A stretch of DNA of 64,000 bases from Flavobacteriales bacterium (GCA_044369395.1 JBIPLZ010000421.1:24847-88846); one strand, 5' to 3'; shown: positions 15,501-46,304, counted from the first letter of the stretch. Translations and numbers: made by a program. The notes: generated from the sequence alone by a model not told the origin.

Positions 15501-15898
15501 GGATCTTTTACGTTGTTTTTTGCAGCGAGTTGTTTACGAATAAGAATCTTTGCGTTTTCACGCATAGCAAAACTTGCAAGAATTTCAGCGTCAGATTTTT
15601 CACCACCACCACTACTACCACTTCTAGCAAAGTGACTAGCAAGACCGCCTCGTTGCCCACCGCCTTGATTGTCGTTACTAAACAGGGATCGAGATGCTCT
15701 CATTTGAAATGCAAGAGCGTGGAATTCTACTGCAATGTGCTTGGCAGAATCTTGAATAGATTCTAATTGAATACTAAAACGGTTTAAAGAAGCGGTCATT
15801 TGAGAGAACTGCTCAAATATTTTTTTGACCGCTTCTGCACCGGTGTAAGGTACTTGTGATAGTTTTGGACGACCGTGTTCTTGTCCTTGACCGATCAT
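6494..15898 (-). CDS. giant tape-measure-like virion protein (3134 aa) with an embedded staphylococcal-nuclease (SNase/thermonuclease) domain
   Basis: It sits after the tail-assembly-chaperone pair and before the distal tail genes. It is highly charged, K/E-rich and coiled-coil-like, with internal tandem repeats. The C-terminal ~500 aa have Gly/Ala-rich hydrophobic segments (GAAVLPAIAFFGALVSGVSLLINGFAFF...; AGAATAGAGAATAGAG). At roughly aa 1270-1400 (about nt 11410-11720) there is an SNase-like signature: DADTYDTGKGKLRLNKGDAPE...KIEAKVLVDSEGKPKLDKYQRLLGDILVDGESLTEKLAAEGHLHV. Confidence 0.6.
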   Translation of the reverse strand: MIGQGQEHGRPKLSQVPYTGAEAVKKIFEQFSQMTASLNRFSIQLESIQDSAKHIAVEFHALAFQMRASRSLFSNDNQGGGQRGGLASHFARSGSSGGGEKSDAEILASFAMRENAKILIRKQLAAKNNVKDPTLNDDEILADYVKMLKRKSEASTKFYEEEKAKREAVDSSGMTQDQRDHIEYLKKKAQWTKAFNEDPKVSSPKDAESEKKHLEYLKKKAQWTKSYNESKQVVAERNANEVKRNQENLAKYKAFLETKSELYEKFQDAKRIANEKKKEEKDVQRKQDFPMPGNVDAYKQANAVNTYKKEQTESAGALNNYVEYLVAKEIEYRAHQERLEAIRQTNKDNHKNDEKPLEPFNKRTYESFLDQPDSLAEDINKFGEHYQKPLRSYVNYLTEKENVTAAHKKAMAAIKNADLSPRQKRQKEKDDVAEKEYQEKIKGLSKEEIAKIEPPEENNWYLKKLEQLKNYYLERLGIEKWFKDAELALIAAGIDNKDNLFKTRRQKKQDARDSVYGVKDASATNTSAPVSTLTQSTQEALARGQKTLETENLVTKLIDANNDSDSNSDSNENLSSILLDLNNIGNLFKNKNVITIDAETVSPPTAPVNSENHAIEAQIVQLSMIMKDALGKNLVEPLNIFIKADETLDLNKDPKFKDFNETYLKEDDAGNTLTPENAAKRITDKIAEMLEKDPTATINRKGTYEDDLANANNDEIKNAMLKIVGNVDKRKNEIGSASYANVNTDYIIKQLIEIEKKHFKTSDLQTKLTKIALDQAKKREEKENRSGIVDSIKQQEASEDGKTIFTIEVQKEAFGIITEGTAHDASVDTEIQDQIFRALASQFQKLKSSITPPSENVSSIVKNLANDSGKTPDKNLISVVETVSSIIKKFYSGKDSSIQNINQKEGDAELRINKGNKVVTDASYVEGVKNLLKTISNEMGINIYKIFDKIKISRSESIKGKDGEYQGRVGTKGEGDNLKQSLTLAIPDAAILGNDAEARAKVIALIMEEAFIHGLSNKIPALFAEGADLAQARGELQGAYGAISNQKSGDLAGAFDSGKYLSSFEELLAAVLKGIAGHDVSGLKDQNLPAGDFKYSIVAAIKNSLSGPMLAAAIVPMLMASMAGAGTLEDERAAGFVNKNNGVEGSVIGDPRARENFFQKGIEDRRKDKSPNAAELSIYADRERKAEEAAKPSSAVEDIKQIRAEKEKEAARVAALKKQKEDAKAAQLAGPPPTAEETAALEEKNQKEKEEKDKKEQAWLAAGGLYSQGGILPLEPKPEDPQKNLDNIVKNVVDTIVAIPSAIEQSSKNNPPLLRSTNPNAPKVGIKGSTNVPPDSIISGSQAPFYSTAPTAKPTPALSLPTIPVNSKPTSTNKKPASIKEEKYVTFPMNVKNPLTSNLIKDADTYDTGKGKLRLNKGDAPEVAHGPGELDQPGGREAEDAARNILANAKKIEAKVLVDSEGKPKLDKYQRLLGDILVDGESLTEKLAAEGHLHVADIEGNEKPLSLMKGAARLKKGLFSKKSIDPSKWRKFSRAQKEAHIKDVEASGDIQTPNNTLNQPPSPAPTPSPMESEIATPEVSENPKEKPSSNFGRLIALALGTAGVAGATLFRVLNKKKKEKENNTPKDVAKSKPKVATAPPLSEDEIKEIDKAIAELEIELAPETTSSATAPKKNRFLDYRYSELKEQQEFREPRKGYNSDGSPNWQDFEIEDNANVDKEIERRDNFKPGIPGTLSKNKDNEEVYTGENGLQYLYQDGKIHTSFGVTGHADPTISITPKTPPIDLNPEPRPSIIKPVVPPEKPISLPTNEQSDEYSNFTEMIKHWGFQTLKDVLDEMKPSEEGYTLEEQEKRNTINSEIERRKNFKPGIPGTISKNINSDLVYIGENGSYYRYDENANEIDTRHAKSGDVDPDIAETPKIKPTDRNPLKPKNKNLKADLVNARIAFEKEKKLKDRAFLLRENQPPAEILAFENAEEELKNAQAAYDKSIENAAPVVEPEIVSEPTKEPARPSNKAAKFVPRKMGDGDLYGSAASQIQVPMELMQTPQVNAQLEKNHGAFNGMSAVDGLIGRSGGLNSHMILAALMGHSLSGDQAFKDKTSNFDPATVAYLLQKEVDNFTGADRGDLDKEVKPLNPTAVKRIDESGRGSLEQEQKKIEAYLKTMANPIFQKIARANLVIVQNQLNRLNDIKRSTAETTTEVKKDDDEPLIISEPSDATTEDAKDTKPEVTKNPDVTKEEKQEEKKEEATTKINAESKQAIPRFREEVPAGWAEVLAETLNRYSGNAYEDHDTIDVDSIVNAIPNTEETKEKKSKFRYDYEAMDSTGTEVKDSINASSEEEAQQKVKELGYALTKITKSNKPPVYEELENNKPEDDSKEKEFYYNIINPNKDVNDFTREKEGHEYASSEEEAFQQIQKKYPEYEIKYIENTADDKPSKVLPQAETSIGVMGAAFGAAVGVSFGTAAVGPIGGIIGSLIGGFLGKLGGGLLVNRFNTERAERFEEREEEKKHRQKERSKQKEDATDTPEIKEKRNEIEIKEAQKYDLENMKSPEDLEKELQAQKMSGAEISDADIDIAVEKQKKAIEASADAIEKLKQELQALTEILNDLIKNKPAVDPEAGSGRRPEHHFLGGFVGGKNSFPGKPKGLDQTPVWAQEGEYITAKKDVPYMMAALGAYKKRGVSHMARGGVVGGGSATITRPSGGSYSSGDIMGPFKDKLNDFVKNTRFGAFVSNLTEASAKIQSFSQSMSGMTANASPDTFATFTGSIKLLSGAVGMALIPVFLRASQIIQTWAREIMNGTGTAGRLFSMFSSLVNSVLDGKFLALGVGIALLGAAVLPAIAFFGALVSGVSLLINGFAFFRAALLASSLMLRRGAAVPPVSPVAAGAATATAGAGAATAGAGAATAGAAKAGASAATAGAASTTGAKTTGFLAKLLAGGGGAAMTGGILSGIVGGVSEGMENADIKSMSGGENVVRTGAQVAGAGGGALAGAMGGAWAGAALGSLVGPLGTAVGGAVGGLIGGALGSWGGSKIASGTSNLAFGDKRRNEKDANGKPLPANDSKQQLSMAYQSSKSQSSYSSVEEAYKKIQVSALGDDPMTAELKKMNEHGLINMLKELEKVNEGVRENKIPMGASS

Positions 15899-25628: not shown

Positions 25629-25655
25629 AGATTTACCCTATAATTAGAATCCTTA

Positions 25656-28382
25656 ATGTATGTATTATGCTTTAAATCTGTAAACGGTTCAATAGGAAAG
25701 GGAAAAGTTATGCTTGAATCTTATATGGAATCACTTTTTACTCCCAAAGACGGTAAAATTAAATCTTCTGATATACATAAAACTTTAACATCTATTATTA
25801 ATCTTCCTTCTAGTTTTACTCCTGAGTCATGGGATAAATGGCTAACTAGTTATGGAGGTAAAGCTAATATACCTAAACCTCTTTTAAAAATACTTGAAGG
25901 GGATCGTAGTGGTAGTAGGTCTGTAGAAATAAGAAAACTAATTACTGAATATGCAGACAGTATAAGAGTTGGAAGTTTTGAACAGGCTCTTGCTATAAAA
26001 AGTTTAAAAGAAGAAATTATTAAAGCTTTTGAAACAACTTTTAATGCAGAAGCTAGTCGCATACAAAGATACACATTAGCTAGAAAAAATAATTTGTTGT
26101 CTATTGCAGAAGAAAATACCATTTTAGGCACTAGTGTAATGCCTGCCTCTAAAGCAGCGGATCAAATTGCATTAATGGTTAAACGTGGTGATAGTTTATC
26201 TAACCTTAAATCATTTATAAATAGAGTAGGAGCAGGCAAAGACTTTATAGTAAATGTTATTAAAAAATTAAAAGATGATAAAAAAGAAGATATCGCAGCT
26301 TTGGTAGGACAAATGGATGCCAAAATAGGAGGTAGTTCTGATTACGAACTTAATCAATTATTAAAATCAATTGAAACAAAAGAAAAAGTAAAGGTTTTTA
26401 TAAGCACCTATTGCAGAACAGAAAGTATTATGAAGCTTATAGAAATGCTTTCTAGTGAGTCATCTTTTAAAGCTAAGACAGGTTTAGACATTTCTATTTT
26501 GCCAGGGATTTTAAATAACAGAAAAACATCTCAAAAAATAAAAGATTTAATATCAGATCAAATTCTTCATAACAATGGTTTTGATAAAGTAATAAAAGAA
26601 ACGGATATGCGTAATTTTATTTTAAACAAACAACAGGAGTTTATAAAAAAGGCAATTGACACCGGAAAACAACCTAGCATTAGAGTTTTAAAAGAAGCAA
26701 TTATTTCAAAAGTTCAATTAAAATTACAAGATAGATATGAAACATTATTGTCAGGGATTGTAGATAAAGGTTTAGTAGGGGCTGAATATTATAGTCAATT
26801 AACTTCAATGATAAACAATCATGTAATAAATGAGCTTTCTTTTATAAATGATTATGTAACTTATCCTACTAGAAAAATATTAGATAAAAATAATAACGAG
26901 ATAACAATTAATTCTCTTCACGTTGATAATGTTGTTTACCCAGAAAGGTTAAAAAGGTTTGGAGCTCCTAAAAAAACCAAAAAGCAAGAAGAGAGAGAAT
27001 CAGATACTGAGTTTTTAAAATTAACTGCTCTTATAAATACCCTGCCCCCAGAAATGAAAGTTGCTCAAAATTTAGTTAAATACAGCATTAAAGCTAAGAC
27101 TTTACAAAAATTACAAAGATTAAAGGCTGAAGGAAAACATTTAAATAAAAACTCAGACGATTTAAAAGAAAGCATTTTTAATGAACACGGACACATTGTA
27201 ATAGGTTCTTTATTTAAAAAAGCTTTAGAAGAGTTAGATGCAAAAACAAGCAGTCCTTATGCAAGCACTGTTTGCTTAAGAGCTATTTTATTTTTAGCTA
27301 AAGGGTCAGGTACTTGGCGGTCTAAACATGCTTATTTATACAAACAAATTTACGAAATGGCCGACAAGCTTCATGCTGCTGCTAAAGAGTCAGGAGTCAC
27401 ACTTGATCAGTTATTAGATCGTCGTCGATTAGAAGATAAAGATCCCGATGAAAATAAAGGACGTAGAAACGACGTAACAAGAGGTCATAGAAAAGATCCA
27501 GATTTTAGTAAAGCAGATTATTTAGACAGGTTACAAATTAGAAATTTGATGAGGGCTATTCCTAAACGGTCAAAAATTATCGGTGAGTATGCTCCACCTT
27601 ATGTTGATTCTAGGGGTAAACCTTTAAGCCCTGCAATTCAAAAACTGTTTGAAAGATACGTTAGTAATATGAAAACTAACGCAGTGTTTCAAAAAATGGT
27701 AGTTGATAACCCTAACGGTATTCATGGACTGTTTATTAATTATTTAACAAGTAAACACGGACAAAGACTGATTAATGATGAAATAGCATTTCGTTTAAAA
27801 GATGTAGATAAAGATCCAGAAGTAAGCAAAGCAATACTTGGGTATGAAAGAGTTTTGTACGGTTTACGCTATGAAAGAATTCAACAAAGTCTTGAAAGTT
27901 CTCTTGGTCATGTAGATAAAAATACTGGATTTTTCATTCCTCAAAAAAGAAGAAATCTGCTAAGTGGTGAAGCAAATAAAGCTGTTAATAAAACTGGACA
28001 ATTTGATGAAGCTAAAAAACAAGAGCTTATGGAAGCAGATAGCTCTGAAGATTATCTTTTTGGTATATCAAAAGTAATTCCACCAAATGTACAAGAAAAG
28101 TTTCAAGGATATTCTTTATTGGGAATGATACATGCTTCAGAATCAGAAGAAGAGCTTTCTATGGTCATGTCTCATATTCATACGTTAATTCCAAAAGATC
28201 ATTTAGATACACTTCAAGAAAACGCATCTGTAAAAATTAGTGATGTTCATTTAGAAAAGCAAACTGAACTAAACAAAAAAACAGAAACAGACCAACAAGA
28301 ATTTTTAAGAAAACAATCTTTAGCAAGGCAACAAGAAATACAGGGGTTAAATAACACTCCCGATGTAACTCGCGGCACTTAA
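25656..28382 (+). CDS. large Lys-rich hypothetical protein (AT-rich island); probable start 25710
   Basis: 908-aa ORF with a markedly lower GC than its neighbours. It has no recognisable motifs. It is followed by a hairpin at CCCCCGTATTAAAGGGG. Confidence 0.5.
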   Translation: MYVLCFKSVNGSIGKGKVMLESYMESLFTPKDGKIKSSDIHKTLTSIINLPSSFTPESWDKWLTSYGGKANIPKPLLKILEGDRSGSRSVEIRKLITEYADSIRVGSFEQALAIKSLKEEIIKAFETTFNAEASRIQRYTLARKNNLLSIAEENTILGTSVMPASKAADQIALMVKRGDSLSNLKSFINRVGAGKDFIVNVIKKLKDDKKEDIAALVGQMDAKIGGSSDYELNQLLKSIETKEKVKVFISTYCRTESIMKLIEMLSSESSFKAKTGLDISILPGILNNRKTSQKIKDLISDQILHNNGFDKVIKETDMRNFILNKQQEFIKKAIDTGKQPSIRVLKEAIISKVQLKLQDRYETLLSGIVDKGLVGAEYYSQLTSMINNHVINELSFINDYVTYPTRKILDKNNNEITINSLHVDNVVYPERLKRFGAPKKTKKQEERESDTEFLKLTALINTLPPEMKVAQNLVKYSIKAKTLQKLQRLKAEGKHLNKNSDDLKESIFNEHGHIVIGSLFKKALEELDAKTSSPYASTVCLRAILFLAKGSGTWRSKHAYLYKQIYEMADKLHAAAKESGVTLDQLLDRRRLEDKDPDENKGRRNDVTRGHRKDPDFSKADYLDRLQIRNLMRAIPKRSKIIGEYAPPYVDSRGKPLSPAIQKLFERYVSNMKTNAVFQKMVVDNPNGIHGLFINYLTSKHGQRLINDEIAFRLKDVDKDPEVSKAILGYERVLYGLRYERIQQSLESSLGHVDKNTGFFIPQKRRNLLSGEANKAVNKTGQFDEAKKQELMEADSSEDYLFGISKVIPPNVQEKFQGYSLLGMIHASESEEELSMVMSHIHTLIPKDHLDTLQENASVKISDVHLEKQTELNKKTETDQQEFLRKQSLARQQEIQGLNNTPDVTRGT

Positions 28383-28564
28383 AAACATTTTAACAACTGC
28401 CATTCTGGCAGAAAACTTTATTAGCCCCCCGTATTAAAGGGGAGCCCCGCCCTATTTGTACTCCTGTTTGTGTGGATGATTTAACACCCCCTACCCCTAT
28501 GTGCGTTATGAGTATGCGTGTTGTGTGCTCAGTGGGGTGTGTTGAATATTTAAAGGAGTCTGAG

Positions 28565-29017
28565 ATGAAGAGTAATGTTATTTTGATTTTGGTTTTATCT
28601 TTCAACATAGCACTCGGCATTTTGGCTGTTCGATACATAAATGAATGTTCAAAAAATATGCCTGAGGTTTGCACTGTTGCTAGTGTTGTAGCTACTGCTG
28701 ATTGGAATGATCAATTTAATGCTCCCGGTTGGACAGTATTTAAAACTACAGAGGGTGAAACAGTATTAAAAATTCACGGAAGTTCGGATGGTTATGTATG
28801 GTTTTATCCTAACAACAGTAGTTGTCCTTTAACTTTAGTGCTTAAAGAGTTAAAAGTAAAAATCACAAAAATTATCTGTTGTCATCCAGCAGTAGTTAAA
28901 GAACGAAGTAATGTTGATGTATCTTTCTTTCAAGAGACTCATCGTTCTTTTGTTTATGCGACTCTTAATATTGTTGAGGGAGAGAATGTTCGGGTTTATA
29001 ACAAAAACCCTAATTAG
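28565..29017 (+). CDS. signal-anchored Cys-containing membrane protein
   Basis: Starts MKSNVILILVLSFNIALGILAV after AAGGAGT. It is the first gene of the repeated promoter-like cassette region. Confidence 0.5.
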   Translation: MKSNVILILVLSFNIALGILAVRYINECSKNMPEVCTVASVVATADWNDQFNAPGWTVFKTTEGETVLKIHGSSDGYVWFYPNNSSCPLTLVLKELKVKITKIICCHPAVVKERSNVDVSFFQETHRSFVYATLNIVEGENVRVYNKNPN

Positions 29018-29150
29018 CAGAGGACACTCCGAAAAGGGTGTAATGCACTACTTAATCTGATCTAGGTTAGGTAACGGTTCCAAGTCCGAGCATATATGGC
29101 TATCTCACTTTGAGGTAGCTGTTTTCGTTTCTAGATCAAGGAGTTTAGTT
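29018..29150 (+). promoter_or_regulatory. repeated intergenic cassette, copy A (post-stop hairpin, conserved AACGGTTCCAAGTCCG box, GCTGTTTT box, AAGGAGT RBS)
   Basis: About 75% identical to copy B at 29293-29419. Confidence 0.5.
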
Positions 29151-29294
29151 ATGGATAATAATATCGTTGGTCAAATTGCATACTTCACAGTTTGTTTTGC
29201 AGTTTTGGTGGTGCTGTTTACTCCTGTTAATGTCTGGTTGTTGGAAAAAATGTTTGCGGTATTAGACAAAGTTTTTATGACTCCAAAAAACTAG
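29151..29294 (+). CDS. small hydrophobic membrane protein (47 aa)
   Basis: MDNNIVGQIAYFTVCFAVLVVLFTPVNVWLLEKMFAVLDKVFMTPKN. Preceded by AAGGAGTTTAGTT-ATG. It is too short for the ORF track. It is flanked by the repeated ~130-bp elements. Confidence 0.45.
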   Translation: MDNNIVGQIAYFTVCFAVLVVLFTPVNVWLLEKMFAVLDKVFMTPKN

Positions 29295-29419
29295 CAGAGG
29301 ACACCTTCGGGTGTAATGCACTATGAAGGCTAGACTTCATAACGGTTCCAAGTCCGGCATATACAGTCATGCTCATGTTGAGTGTGGCTGTTTTTGTTTC
29401 TAGATTAAGGAGTTTTACG
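29293..29419 (+). promoter_or_regulatory. repeated intergenic cassette, copy B (UUCG-tetraloop hairpin GACACC-TTCG-GGTGTA)
   Basis: Shares GCAGAGGACAC, GGTGTAATGCACTA, AACGGTTCCAAGTCCG, GGCTGTTTTTGTTTCTAGAT and AAGGAGTT with copy A. Confidence 0.5.
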
Positions 29420-30039: not shown

Positions 30040-30177
30040 TTTGACTTAGCTGATAGGCAGCTTGGGAGTTCGACGCTCTCACTAAGTCTTTGATCTGAAC
30101 TATCACGGATCTTGCAGTCATCTACGCTCTTGTAGGTGGCTGTTTTAATTGATAGCTACTCTAAAGGAGTATTGGTT
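30040..30177 (+). promoter_or_regulatory. third upstream element sharing the GGTGGCTGTTTT box and AAGGAGTATTGGTT RBS
   Basis: Partial similarity to copies A and B in the proximal 40 nt. Confidence 0.35.
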
Positions 30178-30444: not shown

Positions 30445-30470
30445 TAATTAGTTTAGTTGATTTTTCTAAA

Positions 30471-30503
30471 GCTCATGCGTGTTGCATGGGCTTGTTCTGT
30501 TTA
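30471..30503 (+). terminator. intrinsic terminator-like hairpin 1 (GCTCATGC-GTGTT-GCATGGGC then U-rich)
   Basis: 8-bp stem, GTGTT loop, followed by TTGTTCTGTTTA. Confidence 0.5.
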
Positions 30504-30506
30504 TAG

Positions 30507-30538
30507 CCTCTGCGTGTTGCAGGGGTTTGTTCTTTTTA
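30507..30538 (+). terminator. intrinsic terminator-like hairpin 2 (CCTCTGC-GTGTT-GCAGGGG then TTTGTTCTTTTT)
   Basis: Same loop as hairpin 1, with compensatory stem changes. Confidence 0.55.
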
Positions 30539-30554
30539 TACATAGGAGTTTGAT

Positions 30555-33404
30555 ATGTCATTATGGAATTACAGATTGCCAGCAATTGTTTGTTATAAAG
30601 ATAAGCAGCACATTGCTTACCGATTTACCAAGGGAGGAGTGAAAGTAAAGCTCCTTTCTTGGAAAGAAAAGTTTTCGGAGTCGTTCTTCAAAGCTGTTGG
30701 TACTCCTGATAAGAACAGTACCAATGTGATGAATGAACTTGAGGTTAAGACCTTCAACGGTCACGACTACTTCAAAGTAGAAGGCATTGTATTCTCCTGT
30801 TCGACAGGAGATGTAATGAAAGATAACAACATCATTAAGTTGTTTGATGGTGTTGAACTTACCGAAGGTACAGCTCTTAGAGAAGACCCTGAGAACGGGT
30901 TTTATAAGGGTATGTACAACGCTCATGCTCATAAGCGTCATTTAGAAGACAAACAAGCAGGTATTGTGCCTGCTGTTCCAACTACTACAGCACCAGCTTC
31001 GGTGTCTGTGGAGGTGTTTACTCAAGAACCTATAAAGGAGGTAGATAGAGTGAAGCAACATATTCAGCACTTGCTTGATACAGAACGGATCAAGGAGTTG
31101 AGCAGTAACACAAAGGTAAAGGGAGTCTACGGCAGGGATTATCATATGATCCGTGCTGTATCCAAAGGTAGGGCCTATAGGGTCTTCACAATGGACAAGG
31201 GCAAAGATTGCAAAGAAATCCTTCACGCTATGGAGGGCTTCTTAATAATTGCAGTCAACAAACCCGATACCGTATTATTTGCAGTGTCTGAAGAACCCAC
31301 TACGTTCTTAGCGTGGTTCAAGGATTTCGGCTTTGGGATCAAGAAAGGGCCAAAGCTTAGTAAACGGTTATCGCAATTCATTAGACCCTATCTAATGTTT
31401 GCAAGTTTTGGTCCAAAGATTTTTAACATTAAGATCTTAACCAAAGAAAATTGGTCGGGTGATTTCCGCACTGTTGACGGTGCAAATATCATAAGCACAA
31501 GAGCCTTTCGGTTTTTACTCGCAGTAACCGTAGGTAATCTTATAAAAGCCGGTGATCAAGAAGCTGCTGATCTCATTCAGCAGATGGGCGAAGAAAACGT
31601 TGTATTCAACGGCAGGCTTTGGTTGCCAGGATATGGATTCATCAAGGGTCAGTTCTTTGTCTCTCCTTTCATCAAGGAAGATTTTGTTATCCACGAGGGT
31701 AACATCAAGGATGAGATCCGAGTAAATTGTCCATACGCATACCTTGGTATGGACCCACAGCCCGGTAAACTTTCACTCGAGTCAAACGGTCAGGGGTGTA
31801 ACAACTTCCCACCACCGTTTGGGATTGGTCACGGTGTAAAAGTTGCTGATAGCTTGTTGTACAAGAATGTTGTCAAAGCTTGTGATAAAGCTTTAGAACG
31901 TCTTAAGACTGGCAAGCTTGAGACATCTCTCAAAGACCTCTTGATCTTGTTGCAAAACAACTTGATTGAGGAGAGTGAGACTACCAAGGGAAGACTTAAC
32001 CTTGCTCACTGGAGTGAGTTTGATTCTCCTAAATCTAACCCTGCATTGTTTGGCAGGGAAGCTAAAGATGGTCTACGTCGCATGGTTGACTTAGATGAGC
32101 TTAACATCAATGTCAAAGTTGATGGTGGCACATATTGCCAAACAGTTTCAGAGTCAGTAATGGCTTTGATTGGTGTGCCTACTATCATTGAGAAGGGTAC
32201 TGTCCAATACAATTCTCGGTGGATGGTTTACGTCATGAATGACGAGGACTACATTGCTAACCTCCCCAACCATGGTGGTCCTGACATGGACGATAAGTTC
32301 TGTCAGATACTAATGCGACAAGAAGGTTTTGATGGCATTCGATGCTTTATGTATCGGAATCCATCCGACAGGGGTGAGTACAATGTACTTACCTTCAAGG
32401 GTGAGCCACCTGTTAAAATCAGCGAAGTCATCTTACCAGCTAAGATGCCTCTTAAGCTAACCGAGCGGGATTGGAAGTTGCCAGAAGTTCCATCGGCTAC
32501 AAGGCCGAAAGTAGTTTACGTTGATGCAGATTATGCCATCGACGAGTTTTACAAAGAGCTCGATCTAGAGGGTGCAAACCCTGGATTGGGTATCAACGTA
32601 GGCAGCTTGTGGAACGCTTCTAACCCTGACGTGTCGCTTAGAAATAAGCACATGCCTAGCAATGAAGCTCAGGTTGACTCTACCGTTCAGCTTAAAGACG
32701 GTGTTGATATCGTCTTTATCAAAGGCTGCATGGTGAAAACTATGAAGGAGGTTCTTCAATCTACTTGGATGGTCGATCACCGCAGGTTGCGCAACGTCAA
32801 GAAGATGTTCAAGGATGACGCTCACTACAACTCTTGGGTTGCAAAACTCAAGAAGCAAGGCCGTCTTCCCGAAGCTGGCAACTGGTGGACTCGTCTAGTT
32901 ACTGAGTGTGACAAGGTGGTTAAAACCACTATTGAGAAGATTGACCAGACTATCGAGTCAGTCAGACTTCGTAACAATTACAACCTTATCAGCCCTACAC
33001 CTCTTAATGCTTCACAGCTTGAGATGGTTGCTAGGTATGTCTCCAAGATGATGCGTGTTCAAGGTGCGTGTGGTCGCACACCAGAGACTCGCAACACCGG
33101 ACTTAGAAATGCTAAGGACAGCATCACCCAGAAAGGCCACGAATGGATCGCCAAGGGTATGAAAGAACACTTCAACACCCTGTGTGATAAATTCGCAGCA
33201 TGGGGACTGGTTGAGCAAGACGGGGTCAAACTCAGCAGAACTCCTGTTCGTGTTGCTATTGCAATAGCGCACGTAGTTAACAACCACTCCTTCGTAGGTA
33301 GAGAAAACCCAATCGTCACGGATTGGCTAATGGATCGTAAGGAATACTTCAACACCTACTTGAGTATCCTTAAGACCTACAAGAAGGTTACTGCTACTAA
33401 GTAG
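30555..33404 (+). CDS. large hypothetical protein (949 aa)
   Basis: Long ORF with RBS AGGAG. It is preceded by tandem terminator-like hairpins. It contains a KVDGG motif but no convincing family assignment. Confidence 0.5.
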   Translation: MSLWNYRLPAIVCYKDKQHIAYRFTKGGVKVKLLSWKEKFSESFFKAVGTPDKNSTNVMNELEVKTFNGHDYFKVEGIVFSCSTGDVMKDNNIIKLFDGVELTEGTALREDPENGFYKGMYNAHAHKRHLEDKQAGIVPAVPTTTAPASVSVEVFTQEPIKEVDRVKQHIQHLLDTERIKELSSNTKVKGVYGRDYHMIRAVSKGRAYRVFTMDKGKDCKEILHAMEGFLIIAVNKPDTVLFAVSEEPTTFLAWFKDFGFGIKKGPKLSKRLSQFIRPYLMFASFGPKIFNIKILTKENWSGDFRTVDGANIISTRAFRFLLAVTVGNLIKAGDQEAADLIQQMGEENVVFNGRLWLPGYGFIKGQFFVSPFIKEDFVIHEGNIKDEIRVNCPYAYLGMDPQPGKLSLESNGQGCNNFPPPFGIGHGVKVADSLLYKNVVKACDKALERLKTGKLETSLKDLLILLQNNLIEESETTKGRLNLAHWSEFDSPKSNPALFGREAKDGLRRMVDLDELNINVKVDGGTYCQTVSESVMALIGVPTIIEKGTVQYNSRWMVYVMNDEDYIANLPNHGGPDMDDKFCQILMRQEGFDGIRCFMYRNPSDRGEYNVLTFKGEPPVKISEVILPAKMPLKLTERDWKLPEVPSATRPKVVYVDADYAIDEFYKELDLEGANPGLGINVGSLWNASNPDVSLRNKHMPSNEAQVDSTVQLKDGVDIVFIKGCMVKTMKEVLQSTWMVDHRRLRNVKKMFKDDAHYNSWVAKLKKQGRLPEAGNWWTRLVTECDKVVKTTIEKIDQTIESVRLRNNYNLISPTPLNASQLEMVARYVSKMMRVQGACGRTPETRNTGLRNAKDSITQKGHEWIAKGMKEHFNTLCDKFAAWGLVEQDGVKLSRTPVRVAIAIAHVVNNHSFVGRENPIVTDWLMDRKEYFNTYLSILKTYKKVTATK

Positions 33405-33552
33405 CAGATAGTCTCTCTCACTTCTAATCTCCTCGCAAGGCTTCGCGGGATAGTCTTTGGCTCGGAACAAGGCCTTCGCTCGGAAGCCTCGCTCAGTCCA
33501 ACCAAGCAAAACACACGGACAGTAGTAGTCTCTCTAGCATGGTAGCGGTAGT

Positions 33553-33561
33553 GGTGTGGGG
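33553..33561 (+). promoter_or_regulatory. GGTGTGGGG intergenic motif, copy 1 (CGGTAGTGGTGTGGGGA)
   Basis: Exact 9-mer. The 17-mer is shared with copy 2. Confidence 0.4.
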
Positions 33562-33572
33562 AATAGAGGCAT

Positions 33573-33914
33573 ATGGCTTCTATTCAATTATCTACTTATC
33601 AAGGAGTATCTATCGTGCTAGAAAAATTCGCTTTCATTTCCCGTCACATTCCAACCGAAAGCCAAGTTCGCTTGGCCTTGGAAAAAGGAATTGAGCTTGT
33701 TCATGTTGGTGATCGGGACGGGTTCACTATTAACCCGAAAGAATTTATCGCTGCCGATTTTAGAGGAGTCGTGGTCGTTCACGCTCAAGCAGCCCTGACT
33801 TGCTTTAAGTACGGATTCTCTGTCGGCGTGTTTAACAATGTTAACAGGGCTCCTCTTGGTGAGAAGCCAGTGTTCGAGACTACTGAGTTATTCATAACAG
33901 AAAGGAATATCTAA
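33573..33914 (+). CDS. hypothetical protein (alternative GTG start 33615 after AAGGAG)
   Basis: ORF preceded by a GGTGTGGGG motif. The internal GTG at 33615 has the better RBS. Confidence 0.4.
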   Translation: MASIQLSTYQGVSIVLEKFAFISRHIPTESQVRLALEKGIELVHVGDRDGFTINPKEFIAADFRGVVVVHAQAALTCFKYGFSVGVFNNVNRAPLGEKPVFETTELFITERNI

Positions 33915-34150
33915 TGTTCAATTTGTACAAGCCCGTAAGGGCAGGCTCGCATTACGAGTTAGACCTTGATCTTAACTTCATCTGCTTGCATCCATTCGAG
34001 ATGCAAGCACGTGAAGAGGCCGCACGGTCTAATGATGATGAATATCACGGAGGGTACTTCACTCTCCGTGACTTAGTAAAATTCCTCGATCATCACAACA
34101 TGAAACTAGAGGATCTCCGTCACTGGAGTCCACCAAAGAAAGGGGCATAA
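33914..34150 (+). CDS. hypothetical protein
   Basis: 78-aa ORF, ATGA-coupled to the upstream gene. Confidence 0.4.
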   Translation: MFNLYKPVRAGSHYELDLDLNFICLHPFEMQAREEAARSNDDEYHGGYFTLRDLVKFLDHHNMKLEDLRHWSPPKKGA

Positions 34151-34151
34151 T

Positions 34152-34391
34152 ATGGGCATCTACATAGCCCGTTTCCACACAGATTTACTAGTAGAAGACT
34201 ATCCCACTCCTTACGGAGTGGGTGAATACAACGAAGCAGTAGCCTATGTGGAAGACTACTGCAATCGCATAAAAGGAATCGAGCCCCGCTTCGATCTCGT
34301 TCTCTATACCGGAGATGGCAGAGAATATGAACGAGCCAGTATTGAATACTGGAAAAAATACCTTCCTAATCCTCTTCACCCTCAAGGGTGA
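34152..34391 (+). CDS. hypothetical protein
   Basis: 79-aa ORF. Its stop lies inside the intrinsic-terminator hairpin. Confidence 0.4.
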   Translation: MGIYIARFHTDLLVEDYPTPYGVGEYNEAVAYVEDYCNRIKGIEPRFDLVLYTGDGREYERASIEYWKKYLPNPLHPQG

Positions 34392-34406
34392 TGGGGATTT
34401 TTTTTA
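34377..34406 (+). terminator. rho-independent terminator
   Basis: TCACCC-TCAA-GGGTGA stem-loop followed by TGGGGATTTTTTTT. Confidence 0.6.
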
Positions 34407-34517
34407 AAAACCCTGTCGCACTTCGTGCCCACTTTATATTATCCGCTCCCTGTCGCTCGCTCCCTCAGGAGGTAAGCCAATGCTGTTAGTGGTACTTCAA
34501 GTAACCGTGCCGGTAGT

Positions 34518-34526
34518 GGTGTGGGG
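34518..34526 (+). promoter_or_regulatory. GGTGTGGGG motif, copy 2 (CGGTAGTGGTGTGGGGA)
   Basis: Exact 9-mer, upstream of the 34586 gene. Confidence 0.4.
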
Positions 34527-34585
34527 ATACTACCACGCTGTTGTGCGTAAGATCCTATAACTCATCCTATCTAAGGAGTATTCGC

Positions 34586-35131
34586 ATGTTGACTAACGTA
34601 CAAGGACTTATTAACGAACTAACTACCTATCAGATTAATGAAGGGTACAAGCTCGGGGGCAAGGGCCCTGCTATGAAAAAGCTTGCTGGAACTATCAAGG
34701 AGATCTTTCCAAGCTTATCTGATGCAGACAAAGGAATCTTTCTTGCAACAGTAGGAAGAGGCAGGTTCGCAATCAACAAAGACATATGGGATATGTTTTG
34801 CGAAGCTGTAGGCATCGAAGCCCCTGCACCAACACCTACACCAGCTCCTGCTACACTAGCACCGCAGACAAACAAGGTTGCGGGCGAGATCTTGGAGCAT
34901 GTCAAGGGGCACTTGGTAGCCATCAACTTGCTAGACAAGGCTATGGAAGCACAGTTGAATACCATGGATCGTCAAGCTGAAAAACTTGACTCTCACCAAG
35001 CTATCCTACAAAGCTTAGTAGGCATGGTTAGCGACCTACAAAAGCAAGTTGCTGAACTCAAGAAGCCTGCTTCACCCCGAAGAGGAGCAAGAGCTAAAGT
35101 CGAAGACAGTATCGAGCTTGCTTCCGTGTAA
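34586..35131 (+). CDS. hypothetical two-domain protein with APAPTPTPAPA linker
   Basis: Starts MLTNVQGL after AAGGAGTATTCGC. Followed by a strong intrinsic terminator. Confidence 0.45.
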   Translation: MLTNVQGLINELTTYQINEGYKLGGKGPAMKKLAGTIKEIFPSLSDADKGIFLATVGRGRFAINKDIWDMFCEAVGIEAPAPTPTPAPATLAPQTNKVAGEILEHVKGHLVAINLLDKAMEAQLNTMDRQAEKLDSHQAILQSLVGMVSDLQKQVAELKKPASPRRGARAKVEDSIELASV

Positions 35132-35139
35132 ACCAAAAG

Positions 35140-35171
35140 CCTCTACCCGAAAGGGTAGGGGTTTCTTTTTT
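35140..35171 (+). terminator. rho-independent terminator
   Basis: CCTCTACCC-GAAA-GGGTAGGGG then TTTCTTTTTT. Confidence 0.7.
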
Positions 35172-35268
35172 AGAAAACCCTGTCCTCGCTACGCTCGCTC
35201 TGGATTCGTACGCAGTCGTTCCTCCTGCGGGCAATTGGCAAACGCTAGTCGCTGTTACCCCCTGTCTT

Positions 35269-35277
35269 GGTGTGGGG
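35269..35277 (+). promoter_or_regulatory. GGTGTGGGG motif, copy 3 (TTGGTGTGGGGTTTC)
   Basis: Exact 9-mer in a long non-coding region. Confidence 0.35.
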
Positions 35278-35456
35278 TTTCCAACCTTTGGCAAACCACC
35301 ACGGACTTCTAGCGGAAAAAGAAGACAGTATAAAAGGATCTCAATGTCCTTAATGTAACAAGATGGTGGGGAAAAGGTTATGGGGAACTAACTTCATTTC
35401 CTAAATTACCTACTTTATCACATCTTTTACGCTGTTTTTCCGTGTGTGGCGGTTTC

Positions 35457-35465
35457 GGTGTGGGG
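35457..35465 (+). promoter_or_regulatory. GGTGTGGGG motif, copy 4 (TCGGTGTGGGGCTT), next to a GCTGTTTTT box
   Basis: Exact 9-mer, about 60 nt upstream of the 35523 start. Confidence 0.35.
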
Positions 35466-35522
35466 CTTTACGTCGATGCGTACTGCCCTTTTTCGTTTCC
35501 AGTTCTTGTAAAGGAGGTAGTT

Positions 35523-35711
35523 ATGCCACGTAGAAAGTGCCCCGTCAGAGATGTCAGGGTGCAGAGCACAGTGTTGATTGATGTCAGCACCAGTGAGCGA
35601 TTCAAGGTACTCACAAGTGATGAGTACGCATTATTTCTGGAAGGACTTGTTGTCCAATCAGAAGGTCAGAATCAAATGAAAACTACAAAGGAGATTTGCA
35701 ATGTTATTTAG
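35523..35711 (+). CDS. small basic hypothetical protein
   Basis: MPRRKCPVRDVRVQ... after AAAGGAGGTAGTT-ATG. The upstream part of the tracked ORF is probably non-coding. Confidence 0.4.
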   Translation: MPRRKCPVRDVRVQSTVLIDVSTSERFKVLTSDEYALFLEGLVVQSEGQNQMKTTKEICNVI

Positions 35712-36207
35712 TTCCAACAACAGCGTTAACTTTCGTCAAAAACTGGTAGTCCTCGTAGGCTTCCAAGTATGTCTTATACTAATCGCCAATGTGTTTTGTG
35801 CAAACGAAACAGCGGAGGCAATGGTATATGAACTGCAAATGGATGAAATGGCAGACTACTACGAAGGAAAAGAACGAGTCAAAAATAGACTCGCAGAACT
35901 TGATCTACAACGATGCTGCTCAGGCAGAGTTGCAGAAGAAAAAGAGTGCAAAGTAGAACACTGCCACTGCATGGGTATGCCAAATGCTGAGTGCCAAGAG
36001 ATCTGGTGTGACAACCCAGAGATCATAACTGATGAGATATGGTTCATGGATCAAATGGACATCTCACGGATTAATATTGATCGTAAATACAAGGAAGGAA
36101 AATACCTTCTCTTTGTAGATAAGATCGGAAGGGTATTCAGATTTGATTTGTCCTTAGAATCAGAAGAGTATAAACCCCAAAAAATAAAGGAGTTCATACG
36201 TGATTAG
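35701..36207 (+). CDS. secreted/membrane Cys-rich protein
   Basis: N-terminal hydrophobic signal (LVVLVGFQVCLILIANVFCANETAEA) and Cys cluster (CCSGRV...CKVEHCHCMGMPNAECQEIWCD). Confidence 0.45.
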   Translation: MLFSSNNSVNFRQKLVVLVGFQVCLILIANVFCANETAEAMVYELQMDEMADYYEGKERVKNRLAELDLQRCCSGRVAEEKECKVEHCHCMGMPNAECQEIWCDNPEIITDEIWFMDQMDISRINIDRKYKEGKYLLFVDKIGRVFRFDLSLESEEYKPQKIKEFIRD

Positions 36208-36297
36208 TACAACACAAGAAGCGTTCCAATTCTTTGCAATCATACTGTCAGGTTTCATACTCTTTGGAACCTGCATACTATTAGGATATAAATTACT

Positions 36298-36636
36298 ATG
36301 CCTAATCTAAAAGCAAAGTTATTTCTACTACTCACCGGAGGCATACTATTTGTCTCCGGTTGCAGTAAACCCGATGAAAACCTAACTGATTCTTGCTTAT
36401 ACATAACACAAAGAGTTCCAAGCACCAAAGAAGTTTGGGATCAGTTAGAAGAATCTGCAAAGATGGAAAGAAAAATCCGTCGTGCAAACGTAAAAGTAAA
36501 ACAACTCTGGCCTATGCACCCCACAGATATATCCGAATCAAACATACCAACGTTTCTTAGAGATCCGTACAAATGGTATCTATGTAGAGATAACGAGTGG
36601 GAAGTCTATGCCATATCAACCAACAAAGGAAACTAA
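36298..36636 (+). CDS. lipoprotein (lipobox FVSGC)
   Basis: MPNLKAKLFLLLTGGILFVSGCSKPDEN is a classical signal peptidase II signal. Confidence 0.55.
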   Translation: MPNLKAKLFLLLTGGILFVSGCSKPDENLTDSCLYITQRVPSTKEVWDQLEESAKMERKIRRANVKVKQLWPMHPTDISESNIPTFLRDPYKWYLCRDNEWEVYAISTNKGN

Positions 36637-36638
36637 CT

Positions 36639-36809
36639 ATGTATAAAGTTCTAAGCTTGCTTATGATTCCAATCACGTTCTTTACCTTCTTCGGCATAGC
36701 AGACTTCTACGTAGCTAACAACTACACAGAAGGTTCTATGATGGCAGCGTTACTATCTACATTCACTCTAAACTTATGCACACTAGGGTACACCCTTAGT
36801 AGATGCTAA
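36639..36809 (+). CDS. small membrane protein
   Basis: MYKVLSLLMIPITFFTFFGIADFYV... with an RBS-like AAAGGAAA upstream. Confidence 0.4.
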   Translation: MYKVLSLLMIPITFFTFFGIADFYVANNYTEGSMMAALLSTFTLNLCTLGYTLSRC

Positions 36810-36821
36810 TAAGGAGGCTTC

Positions 36822-37097
36822 ATGAGTTTTACCTTAAAAGCAGTGCTAATAACCGCAGCAGTGTCTCTATATTTTTATAACTTCCCTGTCAAAAAATATA
36901 CGGAAGACCCTGTTAGATTAATGTTGATACCTTACAACGTAATGCCAGATCCTAAACATAGGACGGATTCAATCTTAATGGCAGACGAAACAGGTAAGAA
37001 GTATCTACTGAGTTTTAGAGGAATCATAATGGACTGCGAACATTACCTCACACCGCTACGAAACTTAACAAATAAATTAGACCCCTACTACGAATAA
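36822..37097 (+). CDS. small membrane protein
   Basis: MSFTLKAVLITAAVSLYFYNF N-terminal TM helix, after AAGGAGG. Confidence 0.4.
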   Translation: MSFTLKAVLITAAVSLYFYNFPVKKYTEDPVRLMLIPYNVMPDPKHRTDSILMADETGKKYLLSFRGIIMDCEHYLTPLRNLTNKLDPYYE

Positions 37098-37136
37098 GAC
37101 TCCTATCAACCATTAACCCTGCATCACCCTTGAGGT

Positions 37137-37145
37137 GGTGTGGGG
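37137..37145 (+). promoter_or_regulatory. GGTGTGGGG motif, copy 5 (GGTGGTGTGGGGTTTCTTTTT)
   Basis: Exact 9-mer followed by a T-run. It may double as a terminator 3' arm. Confidence 0.35.
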
Positions 37146-37184
37146 TTTCTTTTTGCCCACGGTTTTCCATTTTCGTTTTTCCCC

Positions 37185-37239
37185 TTTTGGTTTGGGGTTT
37201 CGTCATGGGTTCCGGTTTTGGTTTGGGGCTTCGTGGACA
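37185..37239 (+). repeat. two direct copies of TTTTGGTTTGGGG(T/C)TTCGT, 30 nt apart
   Basis: Copies at 37185-37205 and 37215-37235, upstream of the 37287 gene. Confidence 0.4.
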
Positions 37240-37286
37240 CATGCGTGTTCAAGCCCACACTCTAGCATTGAAAGGAGATTGCAGAC

Positions 37287-45722: not shown

Positions 45723-45959
45723 ATGGTAAACATTAAAGACACCATGATTATCAAGAAAATGCAGGAGGCTCTTCATTCATTCAATAAGATGCTCAATCGC
45801 TTTAACCGAAGAGTGTAGACAAGCAGCAGAAACTGCAAACATGTTTCTTATTGTCTACATGCAGATAGTAAAGCTTAGCTAGACAGAAGACATCTCTGAG
45901 CTAAATGATTCCGCTGTCGAACTACACCAAGAGATAGGCAAACTAAGGGAGCTAGTACA

Positions 45960-46304
45960 ATGAGCCACACACCAAGACCGTGGAAGCCAAGCCTCTTTAA
46001 TATTGTTACCAATGTTACCGGACTTATACAAGAAAAACCAAAGGCAACACCACTCAAAGTAGACAAGGGGTTGCTAGAAATACTCGATGATAATGAAAAC
46101 ACTGTTGCTTTCGTAAACCTAGAAGACACATCCCTAAGTGAAAACGATCTTGCCAACGCTAACCTCCTCGCAGCAGCACCAGAGTTGTTAGCAGCGTTAC
46201 GAGAATTGCTTTACGTAACAGAACCAACTTTCGACAACCGGCACGAAAGAGAAGCTGCTATCGATGCTATCAACAAAGCAACAGGAGAAGAAGATGCCCC
46301 TTGA
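45960..46304 (+). CDS. hypothetical protein
   Basis: 114-aa ORF. Confidence 0.35.
   Translation: MSHTPRPWKPSLFNIVTNVTGLIQEKPKATPLKVDKGLLEILDDNENTVAFVNLEDTSLSENDLANANLLAAAPELLAALRELLYVTEPTFDNRHEREAAIDAINKATGEEDAP

Follow-up and report, generated by a model that had tools for sequence, protein, structure and literature searches.

A conserved G-rich motif downstream of a phage two-barrel RNA polymerase gene probably forms the core of that polymerase's promoters

In the Thermus phage P23-45, the non-virion RNA polymerase (nvRNAP) gp64 reads GC-rich promoters (TCTAGGGGCTTT, GGTCTAGAGGCTTT and TTCTAGGGGCGTT), which were mapped by ONT-cappable-seq and ChIP (PMC10770324). The mapped gp64 promoters have their G-run at about -14 to -11 (Supplementary Data 1, PMC10770324; Chaban et al. 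2024). In our analysis of these promoters the transcription start site (TSS) falls inside an inverted repeat, a feature on which the main text of that paper is silent.

Here we describe a 64-kb stretch of DNA (the window) from the 95-kb genome of an uncultured phage, in which an earlier note had pointed to a recurrent G-rich 9-mer and had offered three explanations for it: a phage-specific promoter, a regulator-binding site or a terminator arm. We find that the motif, GGTKTGGGG, is probably the core of a ~20-nt promoter, SCKGTNNTGGTKTGGGGNTT, read by the phage's own 949-aa two-barrel RNA polymerase (RNAP), a putative non-virion enzyme. The system most likely resembles the mapped P23-45 promoters, and for five of the copies a promoter has the strongest support among the three options.

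A plus-strand motif in the gaps between genes

Exact copies of GGTGTGGGG occur at 33553, 34518, 35269, 35457 and 37137, all on the plus strand as had been claimed, against an expectation of 0.17, and five copies were reached in none of 100 dinucleotide-preserving shuffles. The longer strings said to be shared between copies are present as well, the 17-mer CGGTAGTGGTGTGGGGA at 33553 and 34518 and GGTGTGGGGTTTC at 35269 and 37137. Two one-mismatch copies, GGTTTGGGG, lie at 37189 and 37220 on the same strand, so that GGTKTGGGG is found seven times (0.42 expected), each time intergenic, on the plus strand and within 33.5-37.3 kb. When start codons are chosen by a preceding Shine-Dalgarno sequence (GTG 33615, ATG 34586, ATG 35523 and ATG 37287), the gaps between plus-strand genes hold all seven copies, which bears out the gene-free location given in the earlier note, and no copy appears on the minus strand or in a coding region. 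At the gene-proximal sites the G-run stands 57-72 nt before the start codon. The 9-mer is embedded in an asymmetric consensus of ~20 nt that extends from -8 to +11 relative to it, and PWM matches of 21-31 bits are confined to the plus strand at 33.5-37.3 kb, the shuffle maximum being 16. The GT-rich strings at 28470-28545, which had been likened to the motif, do exist but are a different element without a PWM match, namely the 3' arm, rich in G and U, of a long imperfect hairpin that immediately precedes a ribosome-binding site (z -3.1).

The motif is also present in the orthologous gaps of relatives; its absence there, like copies on the minus strand or in coding regions, would have spoken against a functional site. 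Seven syntenic related metagenomic loci carry 6-8 copies each, altogether 47 unique sites with none on the minus strand, at orthologous positions and all downstream of the polymerase ortholog; in alignments of the orthologous gaps it ranks as the longest invariant block or among the longest. In a distant clade (L009/L012), whose polymerase is only 34-37% identical, the same positions carry a related version, CYCCTTNTRGTCKTGGGG, which retains C-12, T-9, G-5, K-2, T-1 and GGGG and differs at -3, -4, -6 and -10. Such a change of motif alongside polymerase divergence is as expected of co-evolving polymerase-promoter pairs.

The polymerase gene and the transcription units downstream of it

The gene at 30555-33404 on the plus strand ends 150 nt upstream of the first motif copy and encodes a 949-aa protein with the predicted fold of a single-subunit two-barrel RNA polymerase. 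Its fold matches RDR2, QDE-1, P23-45 gp64, the P74-26 ortholog gp62, P23-45 gp96 and crAss phi14:2 gp66, and a GGxDxDD acidic loop (D577, D579, D580) is invariant in the family; by its structural model, the protein is a two-barrel RNAP. The loop departs from the canonical DxDGD and stands elsewhere relative to the RNP motif than in gp64 and QDE-1, and hhalign finds no homology to gp64 at the sequence level (probability 0.5%). The second large conserved protein of the block, of 908 aa, lacks any invariant Asp and gives an all-helical model of low confidence. No T7-type RNAP was matched in PHROGs or Pfam among the large ORFs of the 64-kb window, nor was a tape-measure-fused virion RNAP found there, the 3134-aa virion-type protein showing only nuclease and lysin similarity. 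We infer the pairing of polymerase and motif from circumstantial evidence. The promoter reading is supported by the RNAP gene directly upstream, by the motif's conservation and its change from lineage to lineage, by its fixed spacing from start codons and by its likeness to gp64 promoters.

Under this reading, the pre-early operon (25.7-33.4 kb), which is devoid of the motif and has the polymerase as its last gene, would be transcribed first, probably from a single conserved AT-rich promoter block at ~25636-25680. Twister-like ribozymes and G.U hairpins are found in this pre-early region. The new polymerase would then start at 33553, 34518, 35269, 35457 and 37220, the five of seven copies for which a predicted promoter is best supported, and these promoters would head short transcription units closed by intrinsic terminators (34380, 35137 and 37115). 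The strong sites span only ~4 kb of the 26-kb plus-strand block, the rest of which must depend on other promoters.

The first promoter-type site, GCGGTAGTGGTGTGGGGAAT (33545-33585, plus strand, PWM 31.3), has its G-run 57 nt before GTG 33615 and orthologs in seven loci; an inverted repeat comes after it (33561-33585), with the loop at +13 to +17 from the first G. Its unit is closed by an intrinsic terminator on the plus strand at 34380-34404, CCTCAAGGGTGATGGGG followed by T8. The second site, CCGGTAGTGGTGTGGGGATA (34510-34555, plus strand, PWM 30.3), lies with its G-run 63 nt before ATG 34586, is conserved in seven loci and leads into an inverted repeat (34525-34555, loop +15 to +18) whose hairpin is kept with compensatory changes; the terminator scan placed the end of its unit at 35137-35172 (plus strand), AAGCCTCTACCCGAAAGGGTAGGGGTTT followed by a T-run. 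Between terminator and next promoter lies a conserved non-coding block, AAACCCTGTCGC ... CGCTCGCTC at 34407-34470 and, as a second copy, AGAAAACCCTGTCCTCGCTACGCTCGCTCTGGATTCGT at 35173-35215, which is found on the plus strand only, twice per genome, and is kept even in the distant clade. The third site, CCTGTCTTGGTGTGGGGTTT (35261-35300, plus strand, PWM 28.7), has orthologs in L001 and L003, while L006 and L007 carry related copies. It is followed by a hairpin (35274-35300), and the absence of an ORF over the next 249 nt makes the site a candidate tandem upstream promoter or start of a small non-coding RNA. At the fourth, GCGGTTTCGGTGTGGGGCTT (35449-35488, plus strand, PWM 27.4), the G-run precedes ATG 35523 by 61 nt, GGT-TGGGGCTTT exceeds every other invariant block of its intergenic alignment in length, and one pair of the hairpin formed by the following inverted repeat (35463-35488, loop +12 to +15) shows four pair types among seven orthologs. 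The fifth, CCGGTTTTGGTTTGGGGCTT (37212-37256, plus strand, PWM 28.6), is intact in all seven loci, with the G-run 62 nt before ATG 37287 and a conserved hairpin in the inverted repeat that follows (37226-37256, loop +16 to +19).

The remaining two copies differ from these. The copy at 37189 belongs to a tandem duplicate, CCCCTTTTGGTTTGGGGTTT (37181-37200, plus strand, PWM 21.5), that has no downstream inverted repeat; its G-run pairs upstream, and its position is decayed in some relatives (GGTTTGAGG in L001, GGTTTTGGT in L007). It is probably a decaying duplicate, weak or non-functional. The copy at 37137 is no promoter but makes up the 3' side of an intrinsic terminator hairpin. This terminator (37115-37156, plus strand; 14 pairs and a T-run in the terminator scan) comes after the gene ending at 37097 and has the layout CCCTGCATCACC-CTTGA-GGTGGTGTGGGG, then TTTCTTTTT, with all four Gs of the GGTGTGGGG copy paired with the upstream arm. 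Like ordinary intrinsic terminators, which only this copy resembles, it consists of a hairpin, here of 12-14 bp, and a T-run directly 3' of the stop codon; contrary to what one expects of them, its 3' arm stays constant where the 5' arm varies and follows the promoter core of its clade. In L011 the 5' arm is changed at five positions with pairing kept and the 3' arm unchanged, and in L012 the 3' arm, GGTGTCGTGGGG, matches that clade's own promoter core. It is conceivable, though rather doubtful, that the polymerase recognises this promoter-like core within the terminator of its operon as well.

That every copy is such a G-rich terminator or attenuator arm is very improbable. Besides the case of 37137, this explanation could draw on the other terminators of the block, which end in the similar GGGTGATGGGG and GGGTAGGGG, and on TTTTTCG directly after the downstream hairpin at 35457, where, however, the motif is the 5' side of that hairpin and not its 3' arm. 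The other six copies have no upstream 5' arm, their G-runs pairing downstream or being unpaired, and five of the six have no T-run behind them (33553, 34518, 35269, 37189 and 37220 lack both arm and T-run); they are also downstream of separate, complete terminators. Equally remote is a role in DNA metabolism, whether as iterons of a replication origin or as a site for packaging or nicking. Iterons form clusters of same-orientation repeats within a few hundred bp, as a rule beside an AT-rich stretch and replication genes. Three same-orientation copies do fall within 92 bp (37137-37228), in a T-rich stretch, but the copies as a whole are dispersed over 3.7 kb, with one in each gap upstream of a gene and a constant spacing to the start codon. 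In relatives the middle copy of the cluster is decaying, no shift in composition or skew marks the locus, and the replication genes are ~20 kb away on the other strand.

An operator for a phage or host DNA-binding regulator, with the early genes transcribed by host RNA polymerase, would equally be strand-specific, intergenic and conserved, and small candidate DNA-binding-type proteins are encoded elsewhere in the block. We nevertheless regard it as unlikely. Operators are typically palindromic, whereas this motif is asymmetric; in a scan of 25-44 kb no sigma-70-like -35/-10 pair (16-18 nt spacing) was found at the motif copies, and such sites are depleted overall (21 found, 38.7 expected). Furthermore, a dedicated polymerase gene lies directly upstream, the motif shifts in step with polymerase divergence, and it is like known nvRNAP promoters. 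Among the three options of the earlier note, a promoter is best supported for five of the seven copies, a terminator arm is correct for 37137 only, and the regulator site finds no support in an asymmetric ~20-nt motif whose flanking inverted repeat differs from site to site. The RHH protein named as a possible binder is not needed for explaining the motif.

Inverted repeats at the promoter-type sites

By analogy with the gp64 promoters and the position of their G-run (about -14 to -11), transcription would start ~10-11 nt downstream of GGGG, that is, in the loop of the inverted repeat or at most 2 nt before it, the 5' arm of the repeat beginning inside the G-run. Under a criterion picked after the data were seen, an inverted repeat begins in the G-run with its loop start at +10 to +19 at all five promoter-type sites as against 15% of control GGGG sites, and in P23-45 at three of five mapped promoters as against 16% of controls. 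The distant clade agrees with this at only 2/5 and 2/3 sites, and outer-stem covariation at the motif hairpins is weak. The repeats are 25-32 nt long with 4-6 nt loops and variable sequence.

From these positions we infer the TSS and a role for the repeat, which may help DNA opening for a polymerase without a sigma-like factor. It is conceivable, though rather doubtful, that P23-45 and this lineage have in common two-part promoters, made up of a short G-run motif and an inverted repeat of variable sequence that begins in the G-run and sets the start site at its loop, and opened by hairpin or cruciform extrusion in place of a sigma-like factor. If true, a promoter architecture would be common to a Thermus phage and an unrelated uncultured lineage.

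The same hairpins could instead act in RNA, each motif being the unpaired segment of a leader element with a 5'-UTR hairpin (a processing, stabiliser or translational-regulator site) and transcription starting further upstream. The nearly constant 57-72 nt to the start codon, the hairpin after each site and its retention among orthologs with some compensatory changes would suit such an element, and the neighbouring pre-early region clearly does use RNA-level elements, its twister-like ribozymes and G.U hairpins. We consider it improbable, a little less so than an operator. An intrinsic terminator precedes each promoter-type site, beyond which transcription has to begin anew, and no other candidate promoter is visible in the motif-bearing gaps, sigma-70-like sites being depleted. 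Moreover, the conserved positions reach 13 nt upstream of the hairpin into unstructured, asymmetric sequence, and the frame of the motif matches P23-45 DNA promoters mapped by 5'-end sequencing; the TSS lies inside the repeat there, which excludes a hairpin at the 5' end of the RNA.

Comparison with described phage promoters

The window and P23-45 are alike in encoding a single-subunit two-barrel RNAP at the end of the pre-early region and in having about 5-7 promoters, predicted ones in the window, that head early genes of the same direction. Their promoters follow a common frame, T-C/G-T-N-GGGG-(C/T)-T-T, seen in TCTAGGGGCTTT of P23-45, GGTGTGGGGCTTT of the window and GGTCTTGGGGTTT of the L009 clade; set against (G)GTCTAGGGGC(T)TT, as expected upstream of early genes and in their direction, the window motif has TCT-N-GGGG-Y-TT in common with the gp64 promoters, a likeness in frame. 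On the P23-45 genome, a PWM built from the distant clade only ranks the five mapped gp64 promoters 21, 50, 184, 218 and 276 of 79,976 positions (top 0.03-0.35%). With the window-clade PWM they come no higher than 864-3093 of ~80,000 (top 1-4%), so that in neither cross-genome search were they among the top matches. These ranks mean that the two systems have the frame in common but not the specificity, the positions that would confer it being different; judged by sequence, the window sites and gp64 promoters are related, not interchangeable. The polymerases differ as well, being 949 aa with GGxDxDD and a fold nearer QDE-1/RDR2 here and 616 aa with DYDGD in gp64, and so do host and habitat, an uncultured genome of 40% GC as against a thermophile.

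The hairpins used by the virion RNAP of coliphage N4, a giant T7-like enzyme, have a 5-7 bp stem and a 3-nt loop and are located on the template strand, upstream of +1. The likeness is that a factor-independent polymerase may use a DNA hairpin beside a short conserved sequence for template access; the repeats here, of 25-32 nt with 4-6 nt loops around the predicted +1, are not of the N4 type. T7-type systems, with their class II/III promoters, differ in the right-hand fold of their polymerase, as opposed to two barrels here, and in motif and predicted TSS offset, but they too have a polymerase gene that ends the first-expressed region, a first specific promoter directly after it, an asymmetric ~20-nt consensus whose positions vary with the polymerase lineage, and hairpin-terminated units.

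Copies of the motif and their conservation

The GGTKTGGGG motif of the window probably marks the promoters used by a two-barrel RNA polymerase that the phage itself encodes. Of the seven copies, five look like functional sites, one is a decaying duplicate and one is the arm of a terminator. Five exact, plus-strand copies of the 9-mer GGTGTGGGG had been reported in the earlier note at 33553, 34518, 35269, 35457 and 37137, and our count bore this out, with 0.17 copies expected and no shuffled sequence reaching five; the 17-mer and the 13-mer common to pairs of copies were likewise confirmed. With either G or T accepted at position 4, two further plus-strand copies were gained, at 37189 and 37220. 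The copies had also been placed in gene-free gaps, and all seven proved to be intergenic within the plus-strand gene block, with the starts set at codons downstream of AAGGAG-type ribosome-binding sites (GTG 33615, ATG 34586, ATG 35523 and ATG 37287). Alignment of the sites gave a consensus longer than nine bases, SCKGTNNTGGTKTGGGGNTT, whose position weight matrix (PWM) scored 21-31 bits at the seven sites and at no others in the window, the next-best match reaching 15.4 bits, inside the shuffle range. The sole sub-threshold match on the minus strand (ACGGTCTTGGTGTGTGGCTC, 45954-45973, 15.4 bits) overlaps the start of a plus-strand ORF and is probably due to chance, because its score lies within the range of shuffled sequence. 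An Rfam search at the motif sites returned no known RNA. We regard an RNA-level leader element as a less likely reading of the motif than a promoter.

Homologs of the 949-aa protein encoded at 30555-33404 (plus strand), with identities from 91% down to 33%, lie on syntenic metagenomic contigs, where capsid and portal genes on the minus strand are followed on the plus strand by a gene whose product has about 900 aa, then by small genes and the ortholog itself. Each of the seven closer-clade loci carries 6-8 copies of GGTKTGGGG, always on the plus strand and downstream of the ortholog; the unique sites total 47, and the minus strand has none. In orthologous intergenic alignments the motif is the longest invariant block or among the longest. 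Equal frequency inside coding regions and on either strand, or absence from orthologous intergenic regions of related phages, had been named as observations that would count against a functional site; both were examined, and both outcomes favour such a site. The tandem copies appear to be under different constraint, as 37189 is mutated in two of the loci (L001 and L007) but 37220 is intact in every one. That the repeated copies act as iterons is a less likely explanation than a promoter set.

In three loci of a more distant clade (L009, L010 and L012) the ortholog has 801-804 aa and is 34-37% identical to the 949-aa protein; the exact motif is absent, and CYCCTTNTRGTCKTGGGG stands at the same gene-upstream positions. 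Numbering the first G of the G-run as +1, both versions keep C-12, T-9, G-5, K-2, T-1 and GGGG, and they differ at -3, -4, -6 and -10. Promoters of diverged phage polymerases change in just this manner. We give the operator of a regulator less weight as a reading of the same sites. Among more distant family members, no promoters were seen in L015, such contigs being too short to show them. Three relatives have extra promoter-type copies (L004 10327-10440, L006 13953-14060 and L007 13023-13130); behind these comes a conserved stretch of about 100 nt that contains no ORF, CCCTCTGGTTRGTGACA.ACCTA.GAGA..AAGTCAC.CCTTA.CCAAGGT, which the window lacks and which may represent a non-coding RNA.

At the gene-proximal sites the start codon follows the G-run by 57-72 nt. 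A complete intrinsic terminator (34380, 35137 or 37115) precedes each of the five promoter-type sites, P1-P5 (33553, 34518, 35269, 35457 and 37220), so that the region would consist of short separate transcription units. Directly after the stop codon at 37097 stands a 12-14 bp hairpin with TTTCTTTTT behind it, and the copy at 37137 is its 3' arm. In the L011 terminator five differences in the 5' arm keep the pairing through G.U and A-U while the 3' arm is unchanged, and in L012 the 3' arm is GGTGTCGTGGGG, the promoter core of that clade; the promoter resemblance of this arm may not be accidental. That all copies are terminator arms only, as this one is, is less likely than the promoter reading. 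A further conserved element is a non-coding block, AAACCCTGYC ... CTCGCTACGCTCGCYC TGGATTCGT, situated after an intrinsic terminator and ahead of the next promoter. It is present twice per genome and on the plus strand only (34407-34470 and 35173-35215 in the window; about 13085 and 13731 in L009; about 12253 in L012), and its sequence hardly changes even in the distant clade, where polymerase identity is about 35%. After P3, about 180 nt (35274-35456, plus strand) are ORF-less up to the next promoter and are conserved in L001 and L003; this segment may encode a small non-coding RNA ending at the hairpin and T-run at 35463-35488.

The putative polymerase and its genome context

The 949-aa protein gave no Pfam, PHROG or PDB sequence match, phmmer against the PDB being empty. 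An AlphaFold model built from 12 sequences (pLDDT 78.8, pTM 0.70) matched only two-barrel RNA polymerases in Foldseek, among them maize RDR2 (E 5.5e-9), Neurospora QDE-1 (about 2e-8), gp64 of the Thermus phage P23-45 (8e-6) and Arabidopsis RDR2. By this predicted fold, the gene upstream of the motif sites encodes an RNA polymerase. Its family comprises at least 270 cluster representatives, and the members tested carry no annotation. An invariant GGxDxDD loop is common to the family, gp64 having DYDGD instead; structural equivalence of the two loops could not be established, and hhalign linked the family neither to gp64 nor to a 3134-aa protein of the window. In two distant members with the GGxDxDD loop, P0026 and P0083, a C-terminal PIF1/AAA_30 superfamily-1 helicase domain is fused to the protein.

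The window belongs to an uncultured tailed phage, and an identical gene is found on a 94,996-bp JGI/NCBI metagenome contig. Genes for portal, protease-like protein, major capsid, tail fibres and the 3134-aa protein occupy 46-25628 on the minus strand, those for terminase, PhoH, ribonucleotide reductase, DNA polymerase and helicase-primase lie at 52-64 kb, also on the minus strand, and the plus-strand genes from 25.66 to about 51.5 kb are ORFans almost throughout. There are no tRNAs in the window. Neither megablast nor tblastn revealed similarity to isolated phages, and scans of viral contigs, and of genome contigs for a host or prophage, gave no match.

Two other large proteins were considered as polymerases. 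The DNA encoding the 3134-aa protein (6494-15898, minus strand) has 34-35% GC and a strongly negative AT skew. Residues 1411-1516 of the protein form a staphylococcal-nuclease-like domain, and its C-terminal region (aa about 2670-3100) is lysin/tape-measure-like. The idea of an N4-like phage carrying a giant virion RNA polymerase was rejected, as this protein matches only tail-lysin and tape-measure families and the nuclease-like domain, and similarity to the 949-aa family or to any polymerase was not detected. The 908-aa protein, first gene of the plus-strand block (25656-28382, 30% GC; true start probably ATG 25710), is conserved in position and fast-evolving, with 14-19% identity between clades; it has no database matches, and against the PDB just weak glycosyltransferase ones (E 0.25). 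It was rejected as a second polymerase, since it lacks an invariant aspartate and its model is all-helical and of low confidence (pLDDT 47); nothing indicates such a role.

Elements of the pre-early region

The pre-early region, 25.7-33.4 kb, is free of the motif and has conserved elements of its own. Its first gene is preceded by an AT-rich block that occurs once and contains stacked -10-like boxes, CCCTATAATTAGAATCCTTAAT ... TATTATGCT (25636-25700, plus strand); this block is conserved in all clades and is likely the promoter of the whole pre-early operon. Two full-length plus-strand matches to the Twister-P5 self-cleaving ribozyme (RF02684) lie at 29016-29089 and 29293-29357, with syntenic ones in L004 (4320-4393 and 4598-4662), L006 (8856-8925 and 9127-9191), L001 (9134-9207) and L012 (8070-8141). 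All score 25-32 bits, less than the gathering threshold (37.6). The set of core nucleotides is almost complete, and each match carries at the same position an inserted stem of varying sequence. Because these matches sit between pre-early genes, they suggest that a polycistronic pre-early RNA may be processed by the putative ribozymes. After the polymerase gene, L009 (12416-12520) and L012 (11360-11460) carry a twister-like string, GGAGGACACCC ... GGGGTGTAACACGC ... ACGGGGTTCCAAGCCCCCG, not called by Rfam, perhaps due to a large insertion.

GT-rich strings at 28470-28545 had been described in the earlier note as similar to the motif. This did not hold: they form a long hairpin before a ribosome-binding site and belong to an element class other than GGTGTGGGG. 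Such G.U-rich hairpins lie on the plus strand at 28478-28548, 29096-29122, 29363-29391, 30114-30143, 30469-30493 and 30505-30527; their C/A-rich 5' arm and G/T-rich 3' arm pair, through G.U, in the plus sense only, and after each comes a T-run and, immediately, the ribosome-binding site of a pre-early gene.

Comparison with the gp64 promoters of P23-45

Promoters specific to a phage two-barrel non-virion RNA polymerase are already known from P23-45, in which the product of one gene, gp64, uses a GC-rich motif, defined via ONT-cappable-seq and ChIP-seq, to transcribe the early genes and some of the middle ones (PMC10770324). Its mapped sites are TCTAGGGGCTTT, GGTCTAGAGGCTTT, GTCTAGAGGCGTA, TTCTAGGGGAAC and TTCTAGGGGCGTT, with the G-run at about -14 to -11 and the mapped transcription start site (TSS) about 10-11 nt past it (PMC10770324).

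At all five promoter-type sites of the window a 25-32-nt inverted repeat starts inside the G-run. Its sequence varies between paralogous sites and is kept in orthologs, with few compensatory changes, and folding with DNA parameters and 25 nt of upstream context placed the loop start between +11 and +16, counted from the first G. By P23-45 spacing, the TSS is predicted at about +14, in the loop or at most 2 nt before it. Three of the five mapped gp64 promoters are built in this way too, their mapped TSS preceding the loop by 2-4 nt; hairpins are not mentioned in the main text of the P23-45 paper (PMC10770324). By a criterion picked after the data were seen, the repeat was present at 5/5 sites in the window against 15% of control GGGG sites, at 3/5 against 16% in P23-45, and at 2/5 and 2/3 sites in the distant clade. 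Given this post hoc choice and the little covariation in the outer stem, we treat the repeat as a lead and not as a result. A transcript start at the GGGG with an RNA 5' stem-loop, as at T7 phi10, was downgraded, because the P23-45 TSS maps within the repeat, about 10-11 nt beyond the G-run.

To our knowledge, promoters are known for only a handful of two-barrel RNA polymerases from phages, and the present locus would add a second, independent lineage in which such a polymerase can be paired with a well-defined promoter set. The two diverged promoter versions, from sister clades with polymerases about 35% identical, would amount to a natural specificity-swap experiment. The inverted repeat, if real, would offer a testable answer to the factor-free opening of double-stranded promoters, pointing to a possible hairpin-assisted initiation mechanism, and a ribozyme-processed pre-early operon would be linked to the polymerase switch. 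The compact terminators and the defined promoter of 20 nt could also find use as orthogonal parts for expression.

The window (GGTGTGGGGCTTT), L009 (GGTCTTGGGGTTT) and the gp64 sites have in common the frame T-C/G-T-N-GGGG-(C/T)-T-T. A 13-nt PWM built from six distant-clade sites only ranked the five mapped gp64 promoters 21, 50, 184, 218 and 276 among 79,976 P23-45 positions, and the window-clade PWM ranked them 864-3093, so that with neither were the mapped promoters the top matches. Thus, these ranks argue for a common frame with differing specificity, in a window lineage that, compared with P23-45, is unrelated and uncultured and whose polymerase family is very divergent and unannotated.
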